A stretch of DNA of 64,000 bases from Candidatus Spongiisociaceae bacterium (GTDB lineage Bacteria > Actinomycetota > Acidimicrobiia > Spongiisociales > Spongiisociaceae): the NCBI GenBank assembly GCA_965202665.1, contig OZ241841.1, positions 448,001 to 512,000 of the forward strand, in the 5' to 3' direction. A model generated the notes under the pieces. It was not told the DNA's origin, did not search any database, and saw only the letters and a list, made by a program, of their open reading frames with translations. Shown piece by piece: positions 6,804-38,774 of the stretch (the stretch's first letter is position 1; the number at the start of each line of letters is the position of its first letter). The translations under genes and the position numbers were made by a program.

Positions 6804-8096
6804 CTAGGGGGCGGGCCCGGCGCGGGCGGGCGGTTTTACGGTTCTGGTCGAGGGCGGAGGGGCGTTGGGCGGTTTGCTCCGGGGCCGGGTTTGCCATCTT
6901 TTTCCATTTTTTTCCAATTCCAGGTTGTGTTCCTGCAACTGCCGGTGATGGGGCCCGCACAGCAAAGCCAAGTTGTCGATGTCGGTGGGACCCCCGTCGC
7001 GCCAGTCCAGCAGGTGATGCAAATCCGTCTGGTGGGAAGAAATGTCGCATCGGACGCATCCCCGATCCCGCACCGCGGCGGCCAGCCGTTGCGCGTCGTT
7101 GCCCAAGCGACGGCTGCGTCCCAGCCACAGCACCCGCCCGTCGCCGCCGAAGATAATCCCGCACACGTTGTCGTCCGGGGAGAGGTCCGCCAACAGGGAA
7201 GGCGGAACCGGCCCGCTGCCCAAAATCTCGCATGACCCGTCGGGGCGGGTCCCGTCCAACAACCCCAGGTCGGCCACTACCACCAACTGCGTAACCGCTT
7301 TACCCGACTTATTGTCGGGAAGGGGACGCATGGTGTCGGCGTCCCGGCCGGTCAACAGTTCCACCAAAGCGTCCGCCCGCCGTTGCGGGTTGGTGCGGAT
7401 GTCATCGGGATGAGCCTCCCCGCCGGAGTCGGCCCGCCGCAGATTCTCGGCGTGCAAGTCCAAGGCCTGCCGCACCTGCCCGAACCGGATGGGATCCAAC
7501 TCGGCGTGCAAGATTCCCATCCCGGTTCCCGGTTCGGTGAACATTTTCACTTTCCGCAGGCGCCGTTGCCGTTCCAGCAGTTTCTCCCCCCGGTCGGCGG
7601 AGTGGGCGTTGGCCCACTGCTTGGCCTCCTTGCGGAAATGGTCCGGGTTGGTTCGGGCGGCGTTCTCCAACAAGTCCCGGTTCTGATCGACCTGCGCCGC
7701 CCCGCACTCCCCCGCCGCCGCGGTCAGCGCCGTGGCGTTCTCCAAAGTGATCTCCCCCGCCTGCAACTTGGCCCGCGTGTTGGGCATCTCCTCCAACTTC
7801 TGCGCTACCCGTGAGAGGTGCTTGGCCCCATGGTTGGTCATGCCCAACTGGTCCCGCAACACATGGTCCGCCCCGGCCCCTCCGTCGGCGCGGCTCAGTT
7901 GTCCGGCCAAGTCGCATTTCAAAGAGGACACCTGGGCTTCCATCCGTTTCACCGTCTCCGCCAGCTCGCCCAACGCCGCCCGGGACAGGCCCGCCCCCAC
8001 CTGCCCGCGCAACTCAGCCACGGCGTCGGCGGTGGCGGCCTCGGCCCGCTGGCAGACCCGCCGCAACTTGTCGGTAATAGGGTTGTGCTGTTTCAT
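6804..8096 (-). CDS. DUF222 domain + HNH endonuclease (13E12-like)
   Basis: QRRADALVEL, LGRSRRL, AVRDRGCVRC...HHLLDWRDGGPTDIDNLALLCGPHH. Start placed at ATG 8096 because of the promoter position. Confidence 0.88.
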   Translation of the reverse strand: MKQHNPITDKLRRVCQRAEAATADAVAELRGQVGAGLSRAALGELAETVKRMEAQVSSLKCDLAGQLSRADGGAGADHVLRDQLGMTNHGAKHLSRVAQKLEEMPNTRAKLQAGEITLENATALTAAAGECGAAQVDQNRDLLENAARTNPDHFRKEAKQWANAHSADRGEKLLERQRRLRKVKMFTEPGTGMGILHAELDPIRFGQVRQALDLHAENLRRADSGGEAHPDDIRTNPQRRADALVELLTGRDADTMRPLPDNKSGKAVTQLVVVADLGLLDGTRPDGSCEILGSGPVPPSLLADLSPDDNVCGIIFGGDGRVLWLGRSRRLGNDAQRLAAAVRDRGCVRCDISSHQTDLHHLLDWRDGGPTDIDNLALLCGPHHRQLQEHNLELEKNGKRWQTRPRSKPPNAPPPSTRTVKPPARAGPAP

Positions 8097-8106
8097 AGTG
8101 TTCACC

Positions 8107-8128
8107 ATAGTAAATAGAGGGTGTGACA
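8107..8128 (-). promoter_or_regulatory. PafBC / RecA-NDp-like DNA-damage promoter of the DUF222-HNH gene
   Basis: Minus strand TGTCAC-N10-TACTAT resembles the actinobacterial TGTCGG-N10-TANNNT motif and ends about 10 nt before ATG 8096. Confidence 0.55.
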
Positions 8129-8453
8129 TTTTTGGATTGTATAGGGTATAACCGATTAGAGAACTATATTATTCCCATATTCTACATTATTTAAAAATAT
8201 CTGTCAAATCGGAAGATGCCAGTAGTAGGAAAGGGCACAGGAAAAATCAAGGAACGGCGAGCGGGGGTGGAGGCGCCGATCCCGACCGCCAGTTTCCCGC
8301 CATGGGGCTGGCAACGGCTCGCGTTGGGCGGCGGGCTCTAAGAAAACTTTTCGCGTTCTCGAAAAATTTAAAAATTCGGGGTACCCACCCACCCCCCGCC
8401 CACCCGCCCATAACATACGGCGATTTTTTGGAAAATTCAAGGGGGGCGATAGA

Positions 8454-8818: not shown

Positions 8819-8884
8819 TCAGTGGCCGAATGCCTGCTGGGCGGGGGCGGCGGCCTCGTGGGGGTGTTGCAGGATGTTGTTCCA
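8819..8884 (-). pseudogene. Relic 3' end of a further DUF1156 methyltransferase copy
   Basis: Translates as WNNILQHPHEAAAPAQQAFGH*, compared with [19 protein letters not shown] in the intact paralog. Confidence 0.75.
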
Positions 8885-8899
8885 GATCCATAGGAAGGG

Positions 8900-11663
8900 T
8901 CAGGATTGAAAGATTTGCTGGGATGGGGCGACGGCCTCGTGGGCGTGTTGCAAAAGGTTGTTCCAGGAAACAATCAGCGAATTATAAGCCACCGCATCCT
9001 CAGTGCGACCGGCTCCGTTGGCCACCTCATACAGCAAGTAGGCCAGATGACGGGCGTAGTCGCCCAAACCCGGTCCCGCCCGAGCCAGCAACACCCCGGC
9101 CTGGGCATCCGACCTGCCCTGGCGGGCCACCAAATGCTGAGTGAGCTCCCACACCGTCAACCGCCGATCCTCCGCCGGATCCCACTCCGGATCCAACTCA
9201 TCCCTGGTCAACAACCGCACTCGGCCCCCTTTGGATTCCGCCACCTCCGCCTCCACCACCCCCGACACTGACGTGTTCATCGCCTTCGCCAACGTCTCCG
9301 CATCCCCAAACGGACCCGGCTGATGACCGAACTGCCGATACCAGGTAAGGGCGAACCTGCTGTCGGCATCCAAATCGGTCTCCTCCTGGGACAGGATTTC
9401 CTCCAGCACCCCGTTAATCAGAGCCAGGGCGGTGCGTACCCGCATCGTGGAACCGTCTGCTTCCACCACCCGCTTATACCGGGAGAACACCCGCATACCC
9501 GGCCCGATAGCCGACTGCGCCATATCCACCGGCGGGATAGCCTGCTCCTGCAACAAACCCACCGCCTCCGGCAACTCCTCCCGCAACGCCGCCAAAAACC
9601 CACCCCGCGTCTCCAACCGAGCATCCACCCCCCGAGGCCGACAAGCCAACACCACCGACGACGACAACGCCGCGGCACCCTCGGCCACCGCCCGATTCGC
9701 CATCTCAGTTCGAACCGGCCAAGTCGCAGTAACCTCTAACCCAGCATCCACCAAGCCCTGCAAAAACGTCTCCCAACCGGTAGATGTTGTTGTCCCCTCT
9801 TTTATTTCCTGCTGTTTGAAACCATAAAAAAGGGTTGACGGAAAGTCGGAATGTTGATTTTGGGCTATCTGTTCCATTACTGCCAACATCCCCGACTCAA
9901 AATGTTTCCTCGCGTCATCTTGGGAACCTGCTCTCCAAGTATTAGAAACCAACTCATCTTTTTTTGGCGTCTGCAAGGTAGCACACTCATCCGGCCACAC
10001 ATCCGACAGATTATGACGAAGCCACACATAGAAAAAATCAGATATATCCGCATACTGAATATTGTCATAGTAGGGAGGATCAGTGCAAACAAGCGGTCTC
10101 TCCACTTCAACCAACCGAGCTGCCGCATCCCGTTGTAAAATCTCCCCAATATCGGAAGCTGGAAAATGAGCAACAGCCTTCGCTACCCAGTTCACCTGCC
10201 CCAGCCAGTTACCAGTTGATCCAGAAAATGGATTAACCTCAGCATAATCCCAAATCATCGCTATTGCCTGCCTTCCGAATGTACAACGGATTTTTTCGGA
10301 TCTGTTTTGCCAACTGCACACTGAGGACCAGTAATCGGCGCACCTATCAACTGCGAAAGCCAAATAGGTAACCAACGCATCAGCATACGCAACTACGCCC
10401 AACCCACCATCACGAACCCTTGTTCCATCATCAATCCACCCAACATTACGAATATCCTGCTCAACCTTCTCTCTCAATTCGGATAACAAATCGGAAAAGG
10501 TCGTCAAAGCAACCAACTGACGAGAAGTAAACAAATCACCCCACTCGGTCATACCATACGCAGGAACACTGTCAGTAGCTTTTCCTTGTAACTTACCAGA
10601 TGGCCTCCATCGTGGCTCCGGAACATCCGGTTTTTCAGGTGGCGATACGTACTCGCGACCTCTGCTCCCTTCAACTACAGCACCTATACATTCTTCCCTC
10701 ATCAATCCACGCTGACCCTGCTCCCTTACATATCCGAGCGCAATCGGCGCTCCGGTCGCCACGCAGATGCCTCCTCCCCTGGCGATGGTGCCTCCCTTTG
10801 GAGTTCCGCCTTCCCTCACCTGGTAGGTCACTGTTTGGGTGTCCCGGTTCACAATCGGTTCTACCCACACCACCGGCTTGCCCGGCTTGTTGCGCAGCAC
10901 CCCAGATTTGAGCAGGGGCACATGGCCTTTCCAGGACGGGTCGGGGGACTGGACGGTCCTGGCCCACAACCAGGCAATCACCGTTTTGCCATCCACCTTT
11001 GGGTATAGATGGCCTATTTGTTCCCACGCCCGCTCCCGCATCCACTCTCCGTAGTATCTGATGTCCTCGGCTAAACCCTGCGCACCCTTCCAAGTCTTCA
11101 ACCCCGACTCCCCACGGCTGACGGGATTGACCGGGGGCCGTCCCGCGAAGCGAGGCGGAATCTCCACCATCGCCTTTGTTATCAAGACGGGGACGGGGTT
11201 TAGATCGCCCCCGTAAGCGGACAGGCCCAACCGTTGGGCCTCTAGTGGAATCGTCCCGCCGCCGCAGAACGGGTCCAAGACTTTGATGTTTTGGAGGGCT
11301 TTTAGATGGTTAGTGTGTGTGTGTGTGTGTGTGTGTTACTACACTATTTATGATTTCTTGACGAGCCTCATCCAAAACATCCTGATCGTTGCTACTCTCC
11401 CAACGCACCAACCGTTCCAGAACGCCGAACAGACGCTTGCGCTCAATCTTCTGGTCTTCCACCGTTGGGAAAACATCCGGACGGGAAGACGGATCATCCA
11501 CCAGCGACGCCCACAACACCGCCCGCGCCGCCGCCAACGGACGACGGGCCCACCACAAATGCAAAGTCGAAGGATGGCCGTGACGAATAGACTTCTCGCG
11601 GGCCGACTCCCGGCTTATCACCTCCAACGGCAACGCCACCTCAATAAGTTTCCTTTTTTTCAA
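8900..11663 (-). CDS. DUF1156-type adenine DNA methyltransferase, copy 3; frameshifted at an (AC)12 tract (phase OFF)
   Basis: TTG start at 11663 after GGAGG. The N-terminal KLIEVALPL...HLWWARRPL segment ends THTHTHTH*. The downstream frame continues [25 protein letters not shown]...TDPPYY. One extra AC unit joins the two frames. Confidence 0.9.
11313..11336. repeat. (GT)12 / (AC)12 dinucleotide simple sequence repeat inside methyltransferase copy 3
   Basis: Counted directly from the sequence. Confidence 0.97.
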
Positions 11664-11727
11664 GCAACCTCCCAGAGCAAAGCCGTGCAAAAGCCTACCT
11701 GCACCACATCCGGGGGGTGGGGCAGGA

Positions 11728-14430
11728 TTAGAGGGTTTGCTGGAAGGGGGTGGCGGCCTCGTGGGCGTGTTGCAGGATGTTGTTCCAAGACAGGACCAGC
11801 GAATTGTAGGCTACCGCGTCCTCGGTGCGGCCGGTGCTGTTGGCCGCCTCGTATAACAGGTAGGACAAATGACGGGCTTGGTCGCCCAAACCGGGTCCCG
11901 CCTTCGCCAGCAACCACCCGGCTTGGGCGTCCGACCTGGCCTGGCGGGCCGCCATATGCTGAGTGAGCTCCCACACCGTCAACCGCCGATCCTTCGGCGG
12001 ATTCCACTCCGGGTCCAACTCGTCCCTGGTCAGCAACCGCACCTTGCTCCCCTTGGACTCCGCCACACCGGCATCCACTACCCCGGACACCGACGTGTTC
12101 ATCGCCTTCGCCAACGTCTCCGCATCCCCGAACGGACCCGGCTGATGGCCAAACTTCTTATACCAAGTCAGGGCGAACCGGCTGTCGGCATCCAAATCGG
12201 CCTCCGCCGTTGACAGGACTTCTTCCAGCACCCCGTTAATCAGAGCCAAAGCGGTGCGCACCGGCATTGTGGAGCCGTCCGCTTCCACCACCCGGCGATA
12301 CCGGGAGAACACCCGCATGCCCGGGCCGATAGCCGACTGCGCCATATCCACCGGCGGGATGGCCTGCTCCTGCAACAACCACACCGCCTCCGGTAACTCT
12401 TCCCGCAACGCCGACAAAAACCCGCCCCGCGTCTCCAACCGCGCATCCACCGACCGAGGCCGACACACCAACACCACCGACGACGACAACGCCGCGGCGC
12501 CCCTGGCCGCCGCCCGATTCGCCCTCTCGGTTCGAATCGGCCATGTGGCGGTTACTTCTAAGCCGGCATCCACCAAACCCTGCAACATCTCCCAGCCGCC
12601 TGATTTCACGTCCTGCTGTTTGAAAGCGCAAAAGATCGTCGCTGGAAAGTCAGCGTGTTGATTATGGGCTATCTGTTTCATTACCGCGGACATTCCCGAC
12701 TCAAAATATTCTCTTGCTTTATCTTGCGAACCCGCTCGTTGAACATTAGCTACCAGTTCTTCTTTCTTTGGCGTCTGCAAAGTGGCGCACTCTTCCGGCC
12801 ACACATCCGACAGGTTACGACGAAGCCATACATAGAAAAAATCGGAAATATCCGCATATTGAATGTTATCATAATGGGGCGGGTCTGTACAAATAACCGG
12901 TCTCTCCACTTCAACCAATCGGGCTACCGCATCTCCTTGCAAAACCTCCCCGGTATCAGAACCCGGCAAATTGGCAACGGCCTTTGCTATCCACTCCACC
13001 TGCCCCATCCAGTTACCGGTTGACCCAGAAAACGGATTACCCTCAACATAATCCCAAATCATCGCTATTGCTTGCCTTCCAAATGTACCGCGAATGATTT
13101 CCCTACTGCTATTCCAACTGCACATTGAAGACCAATAATCGGCGCACCTGTCAACTGCGAAAGCCAAATAGGTTACCAAAGCATCAGCATAGGCGACCAC
13201 ACCCGACCCGTCATCCCGAAGCCTGATTGCATCATCAACTCCACTCACGCTGCGGGCGTCTCGCTCAACCATCTCCCTCATCTCGGATAGCAAATCAGAA
13301 AAGGTCGTCAGGGCAACCATCTGACGAACGGTAAACAAATCCGCCCACTCATTTATCCCATACAAGGAAACATTGCTACCTGCTTTTCCTTGTAACTTAC
13401 CGGATGGCATCCATCGCGGCTCCGGAACATCCGGCATTATGGGCGGAACGACATATTCACAACCGCCACTACCTTCAACCACTGCGCATACGCACGCTTC
13501 CCCCATCAACCCCCGCTGACCTTGCTCTCTTACATAATGGAGCGTAATGGGGGCTCCGGTCGCAACGCAGACGCCCCCGCCCCTGGCGATGGTGCCTCCT
13601 TTAGGCGTTCCGCCTTCCCTCACCTGAAAGGCCACCGTTTGGGCATCCCGATTTGCTATTGGCTCCACCCACGCCGCCGGTTTGCCCGGCTTGTTGCGCA
13701 ACACCCCGGATTTGAGCAGGGACACATGGCCTTTCCAGGCCGGGTCGGGGGACTGGACGGTTCTGGCCCACAACCAGGCGATCACCGTTTTGCCATCCAC
13801 CTTCGGATACAGACGGCCGATACGCTCCCAGGCTCGCTCCCGCATCCACTCCCCGTAAAAACGGATGTCCGCGGCCAACCCCTGCGTCCCCTCCCAAACC
13901 TTCGAACCCGACTCGGCAAGGCGGGAAGGATTGACCGGCGGCCGTCCCGCAAAGCGGAACGGGATCTCCACCATCGCCTTCGTTATCAAAACCGGAACCG
14001 GATTCAAATCGCCCCCGTACGCGGACAGGCCCAAACGTTGGGCCTCCAACGGAATCGTCCCGCCCCCGCAGAAGGGGTCCAACACGTTGGGCAAATCATC
14101 CCCGCACGACGCCCCAATCTCGGCCTTGGCTTCAGCCAACACCTCCTGATTGTTGCTGTTTTCCCACACCACCAAGCGTTCCAAAATGTCAAACAGGCGC
14201 TTGCGCTCCCTCTTCTGGTCTTCAACCTTAGGGAACCTGCCGGGATGGGCGGACGGGTCGTCCACCAGCGACGCCCACAACACCGCCCGCGCCGCCGCCA
14301 ACGGACGGCGGGCCCACCACAAATGCAAAGTGGAAGGATGGCCGTGCCGGATGGATTTCTCCCGGGCCGACTCCCGACTGATCGCCTCCAACGGCAACGC
14401 CACCTCAATCAGTTTTCTTTTCAGATTCAA
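11728..14430 (-). CDS. DUF1156-type adenine DNA methyltransferase, copy 2; no SSR, catalytic motif reads DPPH
   Basis: [18 protein letters not shown] (motif I) and TDPPHY (motif IV variant); GGAGG RBS. Confidence 0.9.
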
Positions 14431-14493
14431 ACCACCTCCCAGAGCAAACCGCCAAAAGCCTACCCCGCATCACATTCCAAGGGAAGGTCGGGA

Positions 14494-17283
14494 TTAGAGG
14501 GTTTGCTGGACGGGGGCGACGGCCTCGTGGGCGTGTTGCAGAAGGTTGTTCCAGGAAACAATCAGCGAATTGTAAGCCACCGCATCCTCAGTGCGGCCAG
14601 CACTGTTGGCCACCTCATACAGCAAGTAGGCCAGATGACGGGCATAGTCGCCCAAACCCGGTCCCGCCCGAGCCAGCAACACCCCGGCCTGGACATCCGA
14701 CCGGCCCTGGCGGGCCACCAAATGCTGAGTAAGCTCCCACACCGTCAACCGCCGATCCTCCGCCGGATCCCACTCCGGGTCCAACTCATCCCTGGTCAAC
14801 AACCGCACCTTGCCGCCCTTAGATTCCGCCACCTCCGCCTCCACCACCCCCGACACCGACGTGTTCATCGCCTTCGCCAACGTCTCCGCATCCCCAAACG
14901 GACCCGGCTGATGCCCAAACTGCCGATACCAGGTAAGGGCAAACCGGCTGTCGGCATCCAAATCGGTCTCCTCCTGAGACAGGATTTCCTCCAGCACCCC
15001 GTTAATCAAGGCAAGGGCGGTGCGCACCCGCATCGTGGAACCGTCCGCTTCCACCACCCGCTTATACCGGGAGAACACTCGCATACCAGGTCCGATAGCC
15101 GACTGCGCCATATCCACCGGAGGAATGGCCTGCTCCTGCAACAACCCCACCGCCTCCGGCAATTCTTCCCGCAACGCCGCCAAAAACCCACCCCGCGTCT
15201 CCAACCGAGCATCCACCGACCGCGGCCGACAAGCCAACACCACCGACGACGCCAGTAACGCTTTAGTCTTAGAACCCAATTTTCCAGGCCTTTCAGTCCG
15301 AATAGGCCAAGTCGCAATTACCTGCAAACCAGCATCCACCAGACTTTGCAGAAACGTCTCCCAACCGGTAGATGTAGTCTCACCAGATTTGATCTCCTTC
15401 TGTTTGAAAGCATAGAAAATCGTCGACGGGAAATCGGGATGTTGATTATGGGCTATCTGCTCCATCACTTTAAACATTCCTGACTCAAAATGTTCTTTTG
15501 CTACTTCTTTGGACCCTGCTCGCCAACGATTAGCAACTAACTCCTCTTTCTTTGGCGTCTGTAGTGTTGAACATTCATCTGGCCATACATCCGACAGGTT
15601 ACGACGGAGCCATACATAGAAAAAATCTGAAATATCGGCATAAAAAATATTATCATAATAAGGCGGATCCGTACTAATAACCGGTCTTTCCACCTTACCT
15701 AACTGTGCTACTGCATCTCGTTGCCAAATATCACCAAACGGCGAACTTGGTAAATGAGCAACGGATTTAGCTACCCATTCAATCTGGCCTAACCAATTAC
15801 CAGTTGAAAAAGAGAATGGGTTGGCTTCCGCAAAGTCCCAAACCATACCTATTACCTGCCTACCAAAAAGGCTTGCGATTTTTTCGGCACCGTCCTGCCA
15901 TCTTGATAAGCTATTCCATCGGTCAGTACACCTATCTATAGCAAAAGCTAGGTATGTTATAACTGCATCTGCATAGGCAATATTACCAATCCCACCATCC
16001 CTGAAACCTCTTTTCTCATTAGTCAGTCCCCTGTGAATTGCGTCTTCCTCTACCATCGCTCTTATGTCTAATAGTAAATCGGAAAAGATATTTAAAGCAA
16101 TCAACTGGCGATTAGTAAACAAGTCTCCCCACTCAATCATCCCGTACAAAGGAACATTACCTGAGGCCTTGCCATGCAAAGTACCAACAGGCATCCAGAA
16201 AGGTGCCGGAATATCGGGTATTACAGGCGCAGAAACATACTCACGACCTCTGCTTCCTGCAACTACAACCCCTATACATACTTTTCGTATTAATCCTTTC
16301 TTGCCTTGCTCCTTAATATAATCGAGCAAAATCGGGGCACCGGTCGCAATGCAGACACCTCCTCCCCTCCCAATAGTGCCTCCACTCGGCGTTCCACTTT
16401 TCCTTACTTGGTAGATCACTGTTTGGGTATCCCGGTTCACAATTGGCTCTACCCACACCACTGGCTTGCCCGGCTTGTTGCGTAGCACCCCGGATTTGAG
16501 CAAGGGCACGTGGCCTTTCCAGGACGGGTCGGGGGACTGTACCGTCCTAGCCCACAACCAGGCGATCACCGTTTTGCCATCCACCTTTGGGTATAGATAA
16601 CCTATTTGTTCCCACGCCTTCTTTCGCATCCACTCTCCGTAGTATCTGATGTCCTCTGCTAAACCCTGCGCTCCCTTCCAAGTCTTCAACCCCGACTCCC
16701 CACGACTGACAGGGTTGACCGGCGGCTGTCCCGCGAACCGAGGTGGGATTTCCACCATCGCCTTGCTGATTAGTACTGCAACAGGGTTTAGGTCACCCCC
16801 ATACGCGGAGAGGCCCAAACGTTGGGCCTCCAGTGGAATCGTCCCTCCCCCACAGAAGGGATCTAAAACCTTGATTTTTGATAGAATCTCTGCTAGGTTA
16901 TCATTAGCTGTTGTGTTGTGTTGTGTTGTGTTGTGTTGTGTTGTGTTGTGTTGTGTTGTGTTGTGTTGGCTATTTGCGATTTCTCTTCGGGCTTGATCCA
17001 ACACGTCCTGGTTGTTGGAATTTTCCCAAACCACAAGCCTTTCCAGGATTCCGAATAGTCTTTTTCTCTCGACCTTTTGATCTTCTGCGGTGGGGAACTG
17101 GTCGGGGTGGGAGGACGGGTCATCCACCAGCGACGCCCACAGCACCGCCCGCGCCGCCGCCAGCGGGCGGCGGGCCCACCATAGATGCAGGGTGGAAGGG
17201 TGGCCGTGCCGGATGGCTTTCTCGCGGGCGGATTCCCTGCTTATGGCCTCCAGGGGCAGGGCTACTTCTATCAGTTTCTTCAT
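14494..17283 (-). CDS. DUF1156-type adenine DNA methyltransferase, copy 1; (CAACA)12 tract in frame (phase ON)
   Basis: [11 protein letters not shown] start at 17283, linker [31 protein letters not shown] and TDPPYY. Confidence 0.92.
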   Translation of the reverse strand: MKKLIEVALPLEAISRESAREKAIRHGHPSTLHLWWARRPLAAARAVLWASLVDDPSSHPDQFPTAEDQKVERKRLFGILERLVVWENSNNQDVLDQARREIANSQHNTTQHNTTQHNTTQHNTTANDNLAEILSKIKVLDPFCGGGTIPLEAQRLGLSAYGGDLNPVAVLISKAMVEIPPRFAGQPPVNPVSRGESGLKTWKGAQGLAEDIRYYGEWMRKKAWEQIGYLYPKVDGKTVIAWLWARTVQSPDPSWKGHVPLLKSGVLRNKPGKPVVWVEPIVNRDTQTVIYQVRKSGTPSGGTIGRGGGVCIATGAPILLDYIKEQGKKGLIRKVCIGVVVAGSRGREYVSAPVIPDIPAPFWMPVGTLHGKASGNVPLYGMIEWGDLFTNRQLIALNIFSDLLLDIRAMVEEDAIHRGLTNEKRGFRDGGIGNIAYADAVITYLAFAIDRCTDRWNSLSRWQDGAEKIASLFGRQVIGMVWDFAEANPFSFSTGNWLGQIEWVAKSVAHLPSSPFGDIWQRDAVAQLGKVERPVISTDPPYYDNIFYADISDFFYVWLRRNLSDVWPDECSTLQTPKKEELVANRWRAGSKEVAKEHFESGMFKVMEQIAHNQHPDFPSTIFYAFKQKEIKSGETTSTGWETFLQSLVDAGLQVIATWPIRTERPGKLGSKTKALLASSVVLACRPRSVDARLETRGGFLAALREELPEAVGLLQEQAIPPVDMAQSAIGPGMRVFSRYKRVVEADGSTMRVRTALALINGVLEEILSQEETDLDADSRFALTWYRQFGHQPGPFGDAETLAKAMNTSVSGVVEAEVAESKGGKVRLLTRDELDPEWDPAEDRRLTVWELTQHLVARQGRSDVQAGVLLARAGPGLGDYARHLAYLLYEVANSAGRTEDAVAYNSLIVSWNNLLQHAHEAVAPVQQTL
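16909..16968. repeat. (TGTTG)12 / (CAACA)12 pentanucleotide simple sequence repeat inside methyltransferase copy 1
   Basis: 60 bp of perfect pentamer repeats, counted directly. Confidence 0.97.
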
Positions 17284-17297
17284 CGGGGCAACCTTAG

Positions 17298-18122
17298 TTA
17301 CTTGGCCCGGAGCGTGGCCTGATATAGGGCCCGGCGGCTTAGGCCTGTGTTTTCGGCTACTTGGCGCACTGCGTCCGACATGGCCGCGCCCGCCTCCATT
17401 CGGGACAGCACTTCGGTTACCGCTTCGTCCAGCGGGGCTTCCCCGGCCTCCGCCCCCTCGACGACCAGGGTGAATTCGCCTTGGGGCTTTTCCGACCCCC
17501 ATTTTTCCTCCGCCTCCTCCAGCGTGCCCCACCATATTTCTTCGTGCATTTTGGTCAGCTCCCGGGCGGCGCACGTCCGCCGGTGGCCGCCCAGGGCTTC
17601 GGCCAAACTTTCCAGGTCGTCCAACAGGTGGTGGGGGGCGATGAACAGCACCATCGGGCGTTCCTCCCCGGCCAAGGATTCCAGGCGCCGGGCGCGGTCG
17701 CCTCCTTTGCGGGGCAGAAACCCTTCGAACGTGAACCGGTCGGCGGCGAACCCGGATACGGCCAGGGCGGCCGGGACGGCGCAGGGGCCGGGAATCACCG
17801 ACACTTCCGCCCCGGCCCGCAGGGCGTCCGCCACCGCCCGGCGCCCCGGATCGGCCACCCCCGGCGTCCCGGCGTCGGTGATCAGGGCCGCCGTCCCCCC
17901 CGCCTCCAACATGCGCGCCAGCCGCTCCGACTTCTGCGCTTCGTTGCCCGCGTAATAAGATTCGGGGCGGACGGACGCCCCGCAATGTTCCAGCAAAATC
18001 CGGGCCCGGCGGGTGTCTTCGGCGAACACCGCGTCCGCTTCCCGCAACGTTTCCAGCAGGCGGGCGGAAACATCCCCCAGGTTGCCGATGGGGGTGGCGC
18101 ACAGAATCAGCCGGCCGCTCAT
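17298..18122 (-). CDS. rsmI: 16S rRNA C1402 2'-O-methyltransferase
   Basis: CATPIGNLGD, AEDTR, DAGTPGVADPG, FEGFLPRK, ARELTKMHEE and GEFTLV. Confidence 0.95.
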   Translation of the reverse strand: MSGRLILCATPIGNLGDVSARLLETLREADAVFAEDTRRARILLEHCGASVRPESYYAGNEAQKSERLARMLEAGGTAALITDAGTPGVADPGRRAVADALRAGAEVSVIPGPCAVPAALAVSGFAADRFTFEGFLPRKGGDRARRLESLAGEERPMVLFIAPHHLLDDLESLAEALGGHRRTCAARELTKMHEEIWWGTLEEAEEKWGSEKPQGEFTLVVEGAEAGEAPLDEAVTEVLSRMEAGAAMSDAVRQVAENTGLSRRALYQATLRAK

Positions 18123-38746: not shown

Positions 38747-38774
38747 ACGCTACCCCCCCCCCCCAATTTGTCAA
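38747..38774 (-). promoter_or_regulatory. Promoter of gene A with G12 spacer tract (16-bp spacer)
   Basis: TTGACA-AATT-G12-TAGCGT, about 50 bp upstream of ATG 38695. Confidence 0.8.

Follow-up and report, generated by a model that had tools for sequence, protein, structure and literature searches.

The stretch of DNA analysed here – a window of 64,000 nucleotides on contig OZ241841.1 of a Candidatus Spongiisociaceae bacterium – contains three minus-strand paralogues in tandem, head to tail, each of which is identified by its sequence as HmaB, the methyltransferase of Hma, a Type-1 bacteriophage exclusion (BREX)-related system. Two of these genes carry a perfect simple-sequence repeat inside the coding region, and comparative evidence makes it likely that slippage in the repeats switches both ON and OFF. 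We propose that slippage would set which canonical hmaB copies are made, that HmaB proteins in the ON state would act in trans as exchangeable specificity subunits of the HmaA helicase-nuclease and the HmaC ATPase, and that a single HmaA/HmaC machine would be directed to different sequences by whichever copies are ON. To this model as a whole we assign a probability of roughly 0.45.

Copy 1 (14494..17283; 929 residues) is in frame and ON. Its tract, a perfect (CAACA)12 at 16909..16968, encodes a QHNTT loop, and the frame is open at 6, 9, 12 or 15 units. Copy 3 (8900..11663) is OFF as assembled: the 5′ part, which holds the DUF1156 domain (11310..11663), passes through a perfect (AC)12 tract (11313..11336) that puts it out of frame and ends at a TAA just beyond, and the downstream frame (8900..11278) is intact over 792 codons. 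Twelve AC units lead to the stop; 7, 10, 13 or 16 leave the gene open. Copy 2 (11728..14430; 900 residues) has an open, repeat-free frame. The three genes are separated by spacers of 63–64 bp. The original prediction, made from the letters alone, had described precisely this arrangement – a tandem of three with copy 1 ON, copy 3 restorable by (AC)10 or (AC)13, copy 2 without a repeat, and both tracts lying between DUF1156 and motif I – and frame reading, together with the placing of DUF1156 at residues 8–79 and of the tracts in a low-confidence loop of the structure model, bears it out. The source genome (G000; one contig of 2.77 Mb, 64% GC) holds just five perfect repeats of 2–6-nucleotide units that reach 24 bp or more; since two of the five are the bank tracts, their presence here exceeds chance. 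Another open reading frame (ORF) for a DNA methyltransferase contains the third, (GA)28.

The identity of the genes follows from full-length matches to the PADLOC HmaB profile PDLC00660 (1019, 974 and 879 bits for copies 1, 2 and 3) and from an N-terminal helical DUF1156 domain (PF06634) scoring 103–106 bits in each. Copies 1 and 3 have motif I DPFCGGG and the canonical motif IV TDPPYY. DUF3780 was among the partners that the original prediction recommended searching for, and the genes are not of the DUF3780-linked type: the profile of the other DUF1156 family, NF042963 (DUF1156_antiphage, of the Type-2 BREX-related systems), returns 106–126 bits against a curated cut-off of 1000. A search for DUF3780 found no match in the source genome, and none in the control genomes either. 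Hma is described as a DUF499-centred system comprising an ATPase, an N6-methyltransferase and a helicase-nuclease (PMC12839542); from this and from its motifs, HmaB is predicted to methylate DNA at N6-adenine. A structure model of copy 1 (mean pLDDT, the predicted local distance difference test, 79; built on 21 sequences) has a Rossmann core, a long alpha+beta insert after strand 2 (159–162) and a helical C-terminal region (697–922), at the places where a target-recognition insert and an HTH triad would be looked for in an HmaB; solved relatives cover the core only. In this model the repeat-encoded peptide sits in a disordered loop ahead of motif I, with residues 109–125 below a pLDDT of 50. 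Foldseek returned nothing for it at E≤0.001, and a sequence search against solved structures gave a single weak match, to Trm11.

A central issue is whether the tracts vary in length. Alleles taken from proteins called on other assemblies indicate that both do: CAACA counts of 11, 12 and 16 are found (P0136 ends exactly where (CAACA)11 predicts, P0139 has 12 units, and 16 occur in a second genome, G001), and AC counts of 12, 13 and 16, those of P0147 and P0149 (13) and of P0008 (16) being in frame. Three further proteins (P0014, P0150 and P0151) begin at motif I, as fits out-of-frame alleles or contig-edge fragments. Contigs from three runs belonging to three studies (X11, X13 and X3) reach 30 letters into the CAACA tract, whose length is not resolved there; the tract therefore exists outside the source assembly. 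X12 and X13 may be the source sample. In X12, where both flanks of the 24-bp AC tract stand at about 122x, contigs break within the tract, which hints weakly at mixed lengths. Contigs of X11 (depth about 3) cover copy 1 and not copies 2 and 3, which proves nothing about the composition of the bank. A joint of 15251 to 12500 in X14 was considered as a rearrangement and rejected, being a paralogous alignment of copy 2 sequence. Among the named runs that contain the bank region most are sponge and marine metagenomes, and two homologues carry the names of Acidimicrobiia proteins.

Such repeats are enriched across the family. Of 32 hmaB genes in 13 family genomes, 21 contain one; its site is the linker, motif I, the stretch behind the start codon or, once, a point further in. 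Lone copies bear them far more often than copies linked to partner genes (14/16 versus 6/15; one gene is of unknown context). Linker or motif I repeats are absent from all 47 control matches outside the family, which hold three short repeats elsewhere, and no repeat is found in the first 480 nucleotides of 88 metagenome genes; these controls are mostly distant homologues from genome and metagenome contig scans, the metagenome scan having covered 4 of 64 parts. Frames 3′ of the repeats stay open for 760–790 codons. The ratio of nonsynonymous to synonymous substitution rates (dN/dS) is 0.10–0.26 in 12/12 pairs, pairs of OFF copies included, with dS near saturation in some; judged by these comparisons, the out-of-frame copies are under purifying selection. 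The ON/OFF switch first proposed for the bank therefore stands for two of its three genes, by virtue of length alleles, repeat enrichment across the family and purifying selection on out-of-frame copies; copy 2 is probably no ordinary methylase. That the switching is reversible within a population seems to us very probable.

Five linker units are seen in DNA (CAACA, AC, AAAC, AG and G) and three more are deduced from peptides (TQPNP, NPIQS and SL). The suggestion that the switch arose twice was correct in pointing to differing units and understated their number: there are at least eight linker units, on top of poly-G stretches within motif I and a poly-C stretch that follows the start codon. 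Turnover of units and independent origin of repeats cannot be told apart. Loss of NucS as the origin of the repeats was rejected, NucS being present.

Copy 2 differs from its neighbours in more than the want of a repeat. In motif IV it is the aromatic residue that stacks against the flipped-out base. Tyrosine holds that position in 105/105 other full-length homologues; in copy 2 it is replaced by His519 (codon at 12874..12876, minus strand), and histidine is found in 15/15 full-length alleles of the copy 2 lineage, which are 86–98% identical (three of the 15 read NPPH in place of DPPH). R324C, Y601C and F615M, also at conserved sites, are likewise fixed; of two other alleles, one is broken into two parts and one has a late start. 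Given the stacking role of the lost residue, copy 2 is likely to be weak or inactive as a methylase, yet it is conserved and never gated, and is likely kept for another role. Its deviations at conserved sites number 18 against a background median of 6 and maximum of 22; as this is within range, altered chemistry or slow decay could account for copy 2 instead. A literature listing on the activity of the DPPH motif yielded no paper. A contig of X13 equals copy 2 over 12500–13795 with no differences, and one of X14 shows 17, of which, among the 14 listed, 8 are synonymous and 6 are not.

If copies 1 and 3 are switched, what would the switch change? Beyond motif I the two share 92–100% identity at both ends of the region and 48–70% in the middle. 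Three patches are highly variable (copy 1 residues ~360–385, 452–478 and 663–678), the second and third overlapping segments of the model with pLDDT below 50. Across 27 sequences these patches form 17 combinations, the same patch recurring in different backgrounds. Their position in or near the modelled target-recognition insert suggests that they read DNA bases, and we think it probable that the copies have different DNA targets.

The window has neither a DUF499 nor an hmaA gene, and no match to HmaA or HmaC lies in the 18 kb around the bank; to this extent the bank is “orphan”, as had been claimed. Intact hmaA and hmaC are nonetheless present in the genome, where the search for partners recommended in the original prediction found them, outside the window, in a complete hmaA-hmaB-hmaC operon (2602656–2612227 of G000) with open hmaA and DUF499 hmaC frames. 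In the operon hmaB, a C12 run (G000 position 2606199) that follows the start codon breaks the frame. There are two further lone hmaB genes, one with G11 in the linker (331506), the other (386818–390960) with G15 in motif I (390586) and interrupted by a multicopy insertion of 1.4 kb (G000:C1:388015-389430; two other full copies at 94–95%). Of the six hmaB paralogues of G000, five thus lie away from hmaA/hmaC and five bear a repeat; in the assembly, copies 1 and 2 are the only full-length ones. Outside the family, HmaA or HmaC stands beside hmaB in 27/27 long-flank loci and HmaB therefore normally works with partners; all five genomes with lone copies keep an HmaC.

Several related loci deserve mention. 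The lone hmaB at G000:C1:329113-331861 and its orthologue in G001 (L036) lie behind a tRNA-like 3′ end, are both out of frame at G11, and have a dN/dS of 0.115. The rsmI-tatD slot of G001 also holds a repeat-bearing hmaB. In the same genome an operon of the form hmaA-hmaB-hmaB-hmaC (L037:4098-16356) has a repeat-free first hmaB and a second that is broken at a G13 run 862 nucleotides in. G000 has a second, distant DUF1156/DUF499 locus (G000:C1:1925537-1934000), in which a C11 run splits a helicase-NOV_C gene and not the methyltransferase. Tandem DUF1156 genes are not unique, more than one match being found at 9 of 100 control loci. A DNA pattern of the conserved hmaB 5′ end had no matches in viral contigs.

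The use of HmaA/HmaC in trans by lone copies would have its analogue in PglX of type 1 BREX, a specificity factor needed for both restriction and modification, which complements in trans and gives no methylation alone (PMC11341690, PMC12707154). By this analogy we consider such use about an even bet. A number of observations weigh against the model. The lone copies of G000 group with those of G001 in a clade of their own (support 100/98; tree of 29 rows, not all of the 32 family genes and outgroup being usable), apart from the operon hmaB, which is 61% identical to copy 1; lone copies therefore show no recent co-evolution with the resident HmaC. The closest solved folds to the copy 1 model are tRNA amino-methyltransferases (Z 10.4–10.9; Trm14 at Z 10.9, root-mean-square deviation 3.0, 170 residues aligned), so that DNA as the substrate is something we infer, and no methylation motif of HmaB was found in the literature searched. 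In Halomonas, hmaA cloned alone was assayed for defence, and T4 from a host overexpressing HmaB infected no differently (PMC11232893). As to switching itself, only 4 of the 21 repeat-bearing genes are in frame (P=0.12 versus one third) and related genomes are non-independent samples; a repeat of 55–60 bp can also be miscounted by assemblers, and the evidence for length alleles is drawn from proteins called on other assemblies.

The main rival takes the lone copies for switchable methylases that act alone and need neither HmaA nor HmaC, either as a phasevarion or as a shield of the chromosome against incoming restriction systems. It draws strength from the lone copies being the most repeat-rich class and forming their own clades in two genera, and from the company the tracts keep: in G000 repeats also occur in type III mod-like, type ISP, IIG, type I and beta-class methyltransferase genes, as in phasevarion-bearing host-adapted bacteria. 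The partners adjoining hmaB at every long-flank locus outside the family, the HmaC kept by every genome with lone copies, the failure of PglX to methylate alone and the unaltered T4 infection all speak against it, and we regard it as somewhat unlikely. Less likely again is an elaboration of the trans model in which, in this sponge-symbiont lineage, HmaB constitutes a dispersed, diversifying set of independently repeat-gated specificity subunits whose recognition patches are shuffled and which are served by one HmaA/HmaC, with copy 2 as a conserved, always-on pseudo-methylase that would fill the complex when others are off or soak up phage DNA-mimic inhibitors.

Patch reassortment raises a different possibility, namely that the bank mainly supplies sequence for recombination of specificity patches and that expression is secondary. 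Identity along the three copies is mosaic, patches have been reassorted between alleles, coverage by X14 takes in the flanks of copy 1 and not its variable middle, and the combination of conserved ends and variable middle recalls the invertible pglX of Lacticaseibacillus rhamnosus (PMC9881135). Silent donors, however, need neither full length, nor purifying selection, nor frame-switching repeats, and the longest exact match among the bank copies is 56 bp, with the operon hmaB outside the lone clade; a library of donors is thus improbable.

Downstream of the bank lies a minus-strand DUF222-HNH gene (6804..8129), and it could be asked whether this is the partner nuclease of a type II-like restriction-modification pair. 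Such a gene follows 2/3 lone hmaB loci in G000 and 5/5 in G001. The source genome has eight near-full-length copies, each 0.3–6.9 kb from a non-promoter tract as against 0.19 expected per random site. Six of the eight are not beside hmaB, however, and none was found at the six lone loci of G004, G009 and G013; the gene has a sigma-70-like promoter of its own (8207–8179), although the promoter and terminator scan performed no better than chance; and a cognate nuclease that is on while its methylase is off would be expected to be lethal. We consider the pairing very improbable. The view that the tracts are mere accidents or artefacts of assembly, with decaying pseudogenes as the extra copies – for which one might cite the insertion sequence in one lone copy, the conserved residues lost in copy 2, the 17/21 repeat-bearing genes out of frame and the fact that long-read assemblies can miscall repeats – was already disfavoured and is hardly tenable given tracts in contigs of other studies, in-frame alleles elsewhere, long open frames with low dN/dS, and a length distribution of G/C runs in G000 that jumps from one at 9–10 nucleotides to 74 at 11 or more.

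Returning to the proposed slippage-gated HmaB, what is already described accounts for some of its features. What the copies have in common with HmaB of Hma (Payne et al. 2021, PMC8565338; Liu et al. 2024, PMC11232893), equivalent to the Type-1 BREX-related N6-methyltransferase of PMC12839542, is the full-length profile match, the N-terminal DUF1156 domain, the Rossmann core with its insert behind strand 2 and the helical C-terminus, and G000 has the complete hmaABC operon; at the bank, hmaA, hmaB and hmaC do not occur together. The source genome departs from Hma in having six paralogues, five of them away from hmaA/hmaC and five with frame-switching repeats, and one lineage with fixed DPPH. 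In full-text searches of the literature on DUF1156, HmaB and Hma we found neither repeat switching nor lone paralogue banks of HmaB; the sole “phase-variable” in PMC12839542 is in the title of a reference. The statement that no repeat-based phase variation is described for the family hence survives for HmaB, and has to be set against a precedent in print for a BREX methyltransferase: pglX of Streptomyces coelicolor Pgl (type 2 BREX) phase-varies at a G tract (PMC4365076, citing Sumby and Smith 2003).

In pglX of S. coelicolor, as here, a simple repeat inside a BREX-type methyltransferase gene gives ON and OFF states; there it is a single gene of a different methyltransferase family, whereas here there are several paralogues with differing patches, many repeat units and distant partners. 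Type 1 BREX pglX alleles are invertible in L. rhamnosus and Brevibacterium casei (PMC9881135). They share with hmaB a variable middle that exists in several versions and is framed by constant ends, which points to specificity switching, but do so by programmed inversion in one locus, in contrast to repeat-gated full genes standing head to tail, beside which no recombinase was noted. Phasevarion methyltransferases (type III mod, type I hsd and the IIG enzyme Cj0031) resemble the bank in their 5′ coding repeat, ON/OFF control by frame, allelic variable region and host-associated organism; they belong to other enzyme families, and the present case comes from an uncultured sponge-associated bacterium rather than a pathogen. 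New here are the tandem bank, the reassortment of patches, the concentration of repeats among lone copies and a lineage that conserves DPPH.

The bank belongs to a contingency repertoire that spans the whole genome. From the ORFs at 54 other tracts, 20 were chosen and scanned; DNA methyltransferase or restriction-modification genes account for 14 of these. A second repeat-gated bank lies at G000:C1:1191744-1232872 (L105–L108), where four type ISP restriction-modification genes, three of them in tandem, each have at least one G/C run of 11–13 nucleotides. A further set of methyltransferase ORFs with G/C runs or (GA)28 comprises type III mod-like, type I M and S, IIG and beta-class members (L100, L101, L103, L104, L110, L113, L114, L116, L118 and L119). 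For two tract-linked ORFs, L102 (362808–364651 of G000, 439 residues) and L111 (2167845–2171429, 1195 residues), neither Pfam nor PADLOC gave a match at the thresholds applied. Twenty-four G/C runs of G000 are flanked by TTGACA on one side and a –10-like hexamer on the other. These promoter-like TTGACA...G11–13...TAGCGT elements, with spacers of 15–17 nucleotides, precede very large surface-type ORFs; four are at window positions 38753, 44436, 51731 and 59047, and the other 20 are elsewhere in G000. Enrichment of restriction-modification genes is reported for sponge-associated UBA5794 actinobacteria in a paper that, in its available portions, does not mention phase variation (PMC12008989).

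Upstream of the bank, rsmI (17298..18122, minus strand) ends 14 bp before copy 1, and the bank is probably co-transcribed with it. Behind copy 3 lies a partial duplicate of the hmaB 3′ end, also on the minus strand (8830..8885; 86–92% over 50–51 bp), a possible remnant of a change in copy number.

A functional study saw no effect of HmaB alone (PMC11232893). Natural ON and OFF alleles, together with reassorted patches, make the function of HmaB testable, and the conserved DPPH lineage provides a candidate pseudo-enzyme. If the trans model is true, then in a BREX-related system specificity is changed by gating whole genes arranged in a bank, a design of which the literature searched gave no example in this family, and switching would let a population vary its defence specificity. 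More generally, with tracts in restriction-modification and surface-protein genes throughout its genome, this uncultured sponge-associated bacterium would extend repeat-based bet-hedging beyond the pathogens from which it is mostly known.

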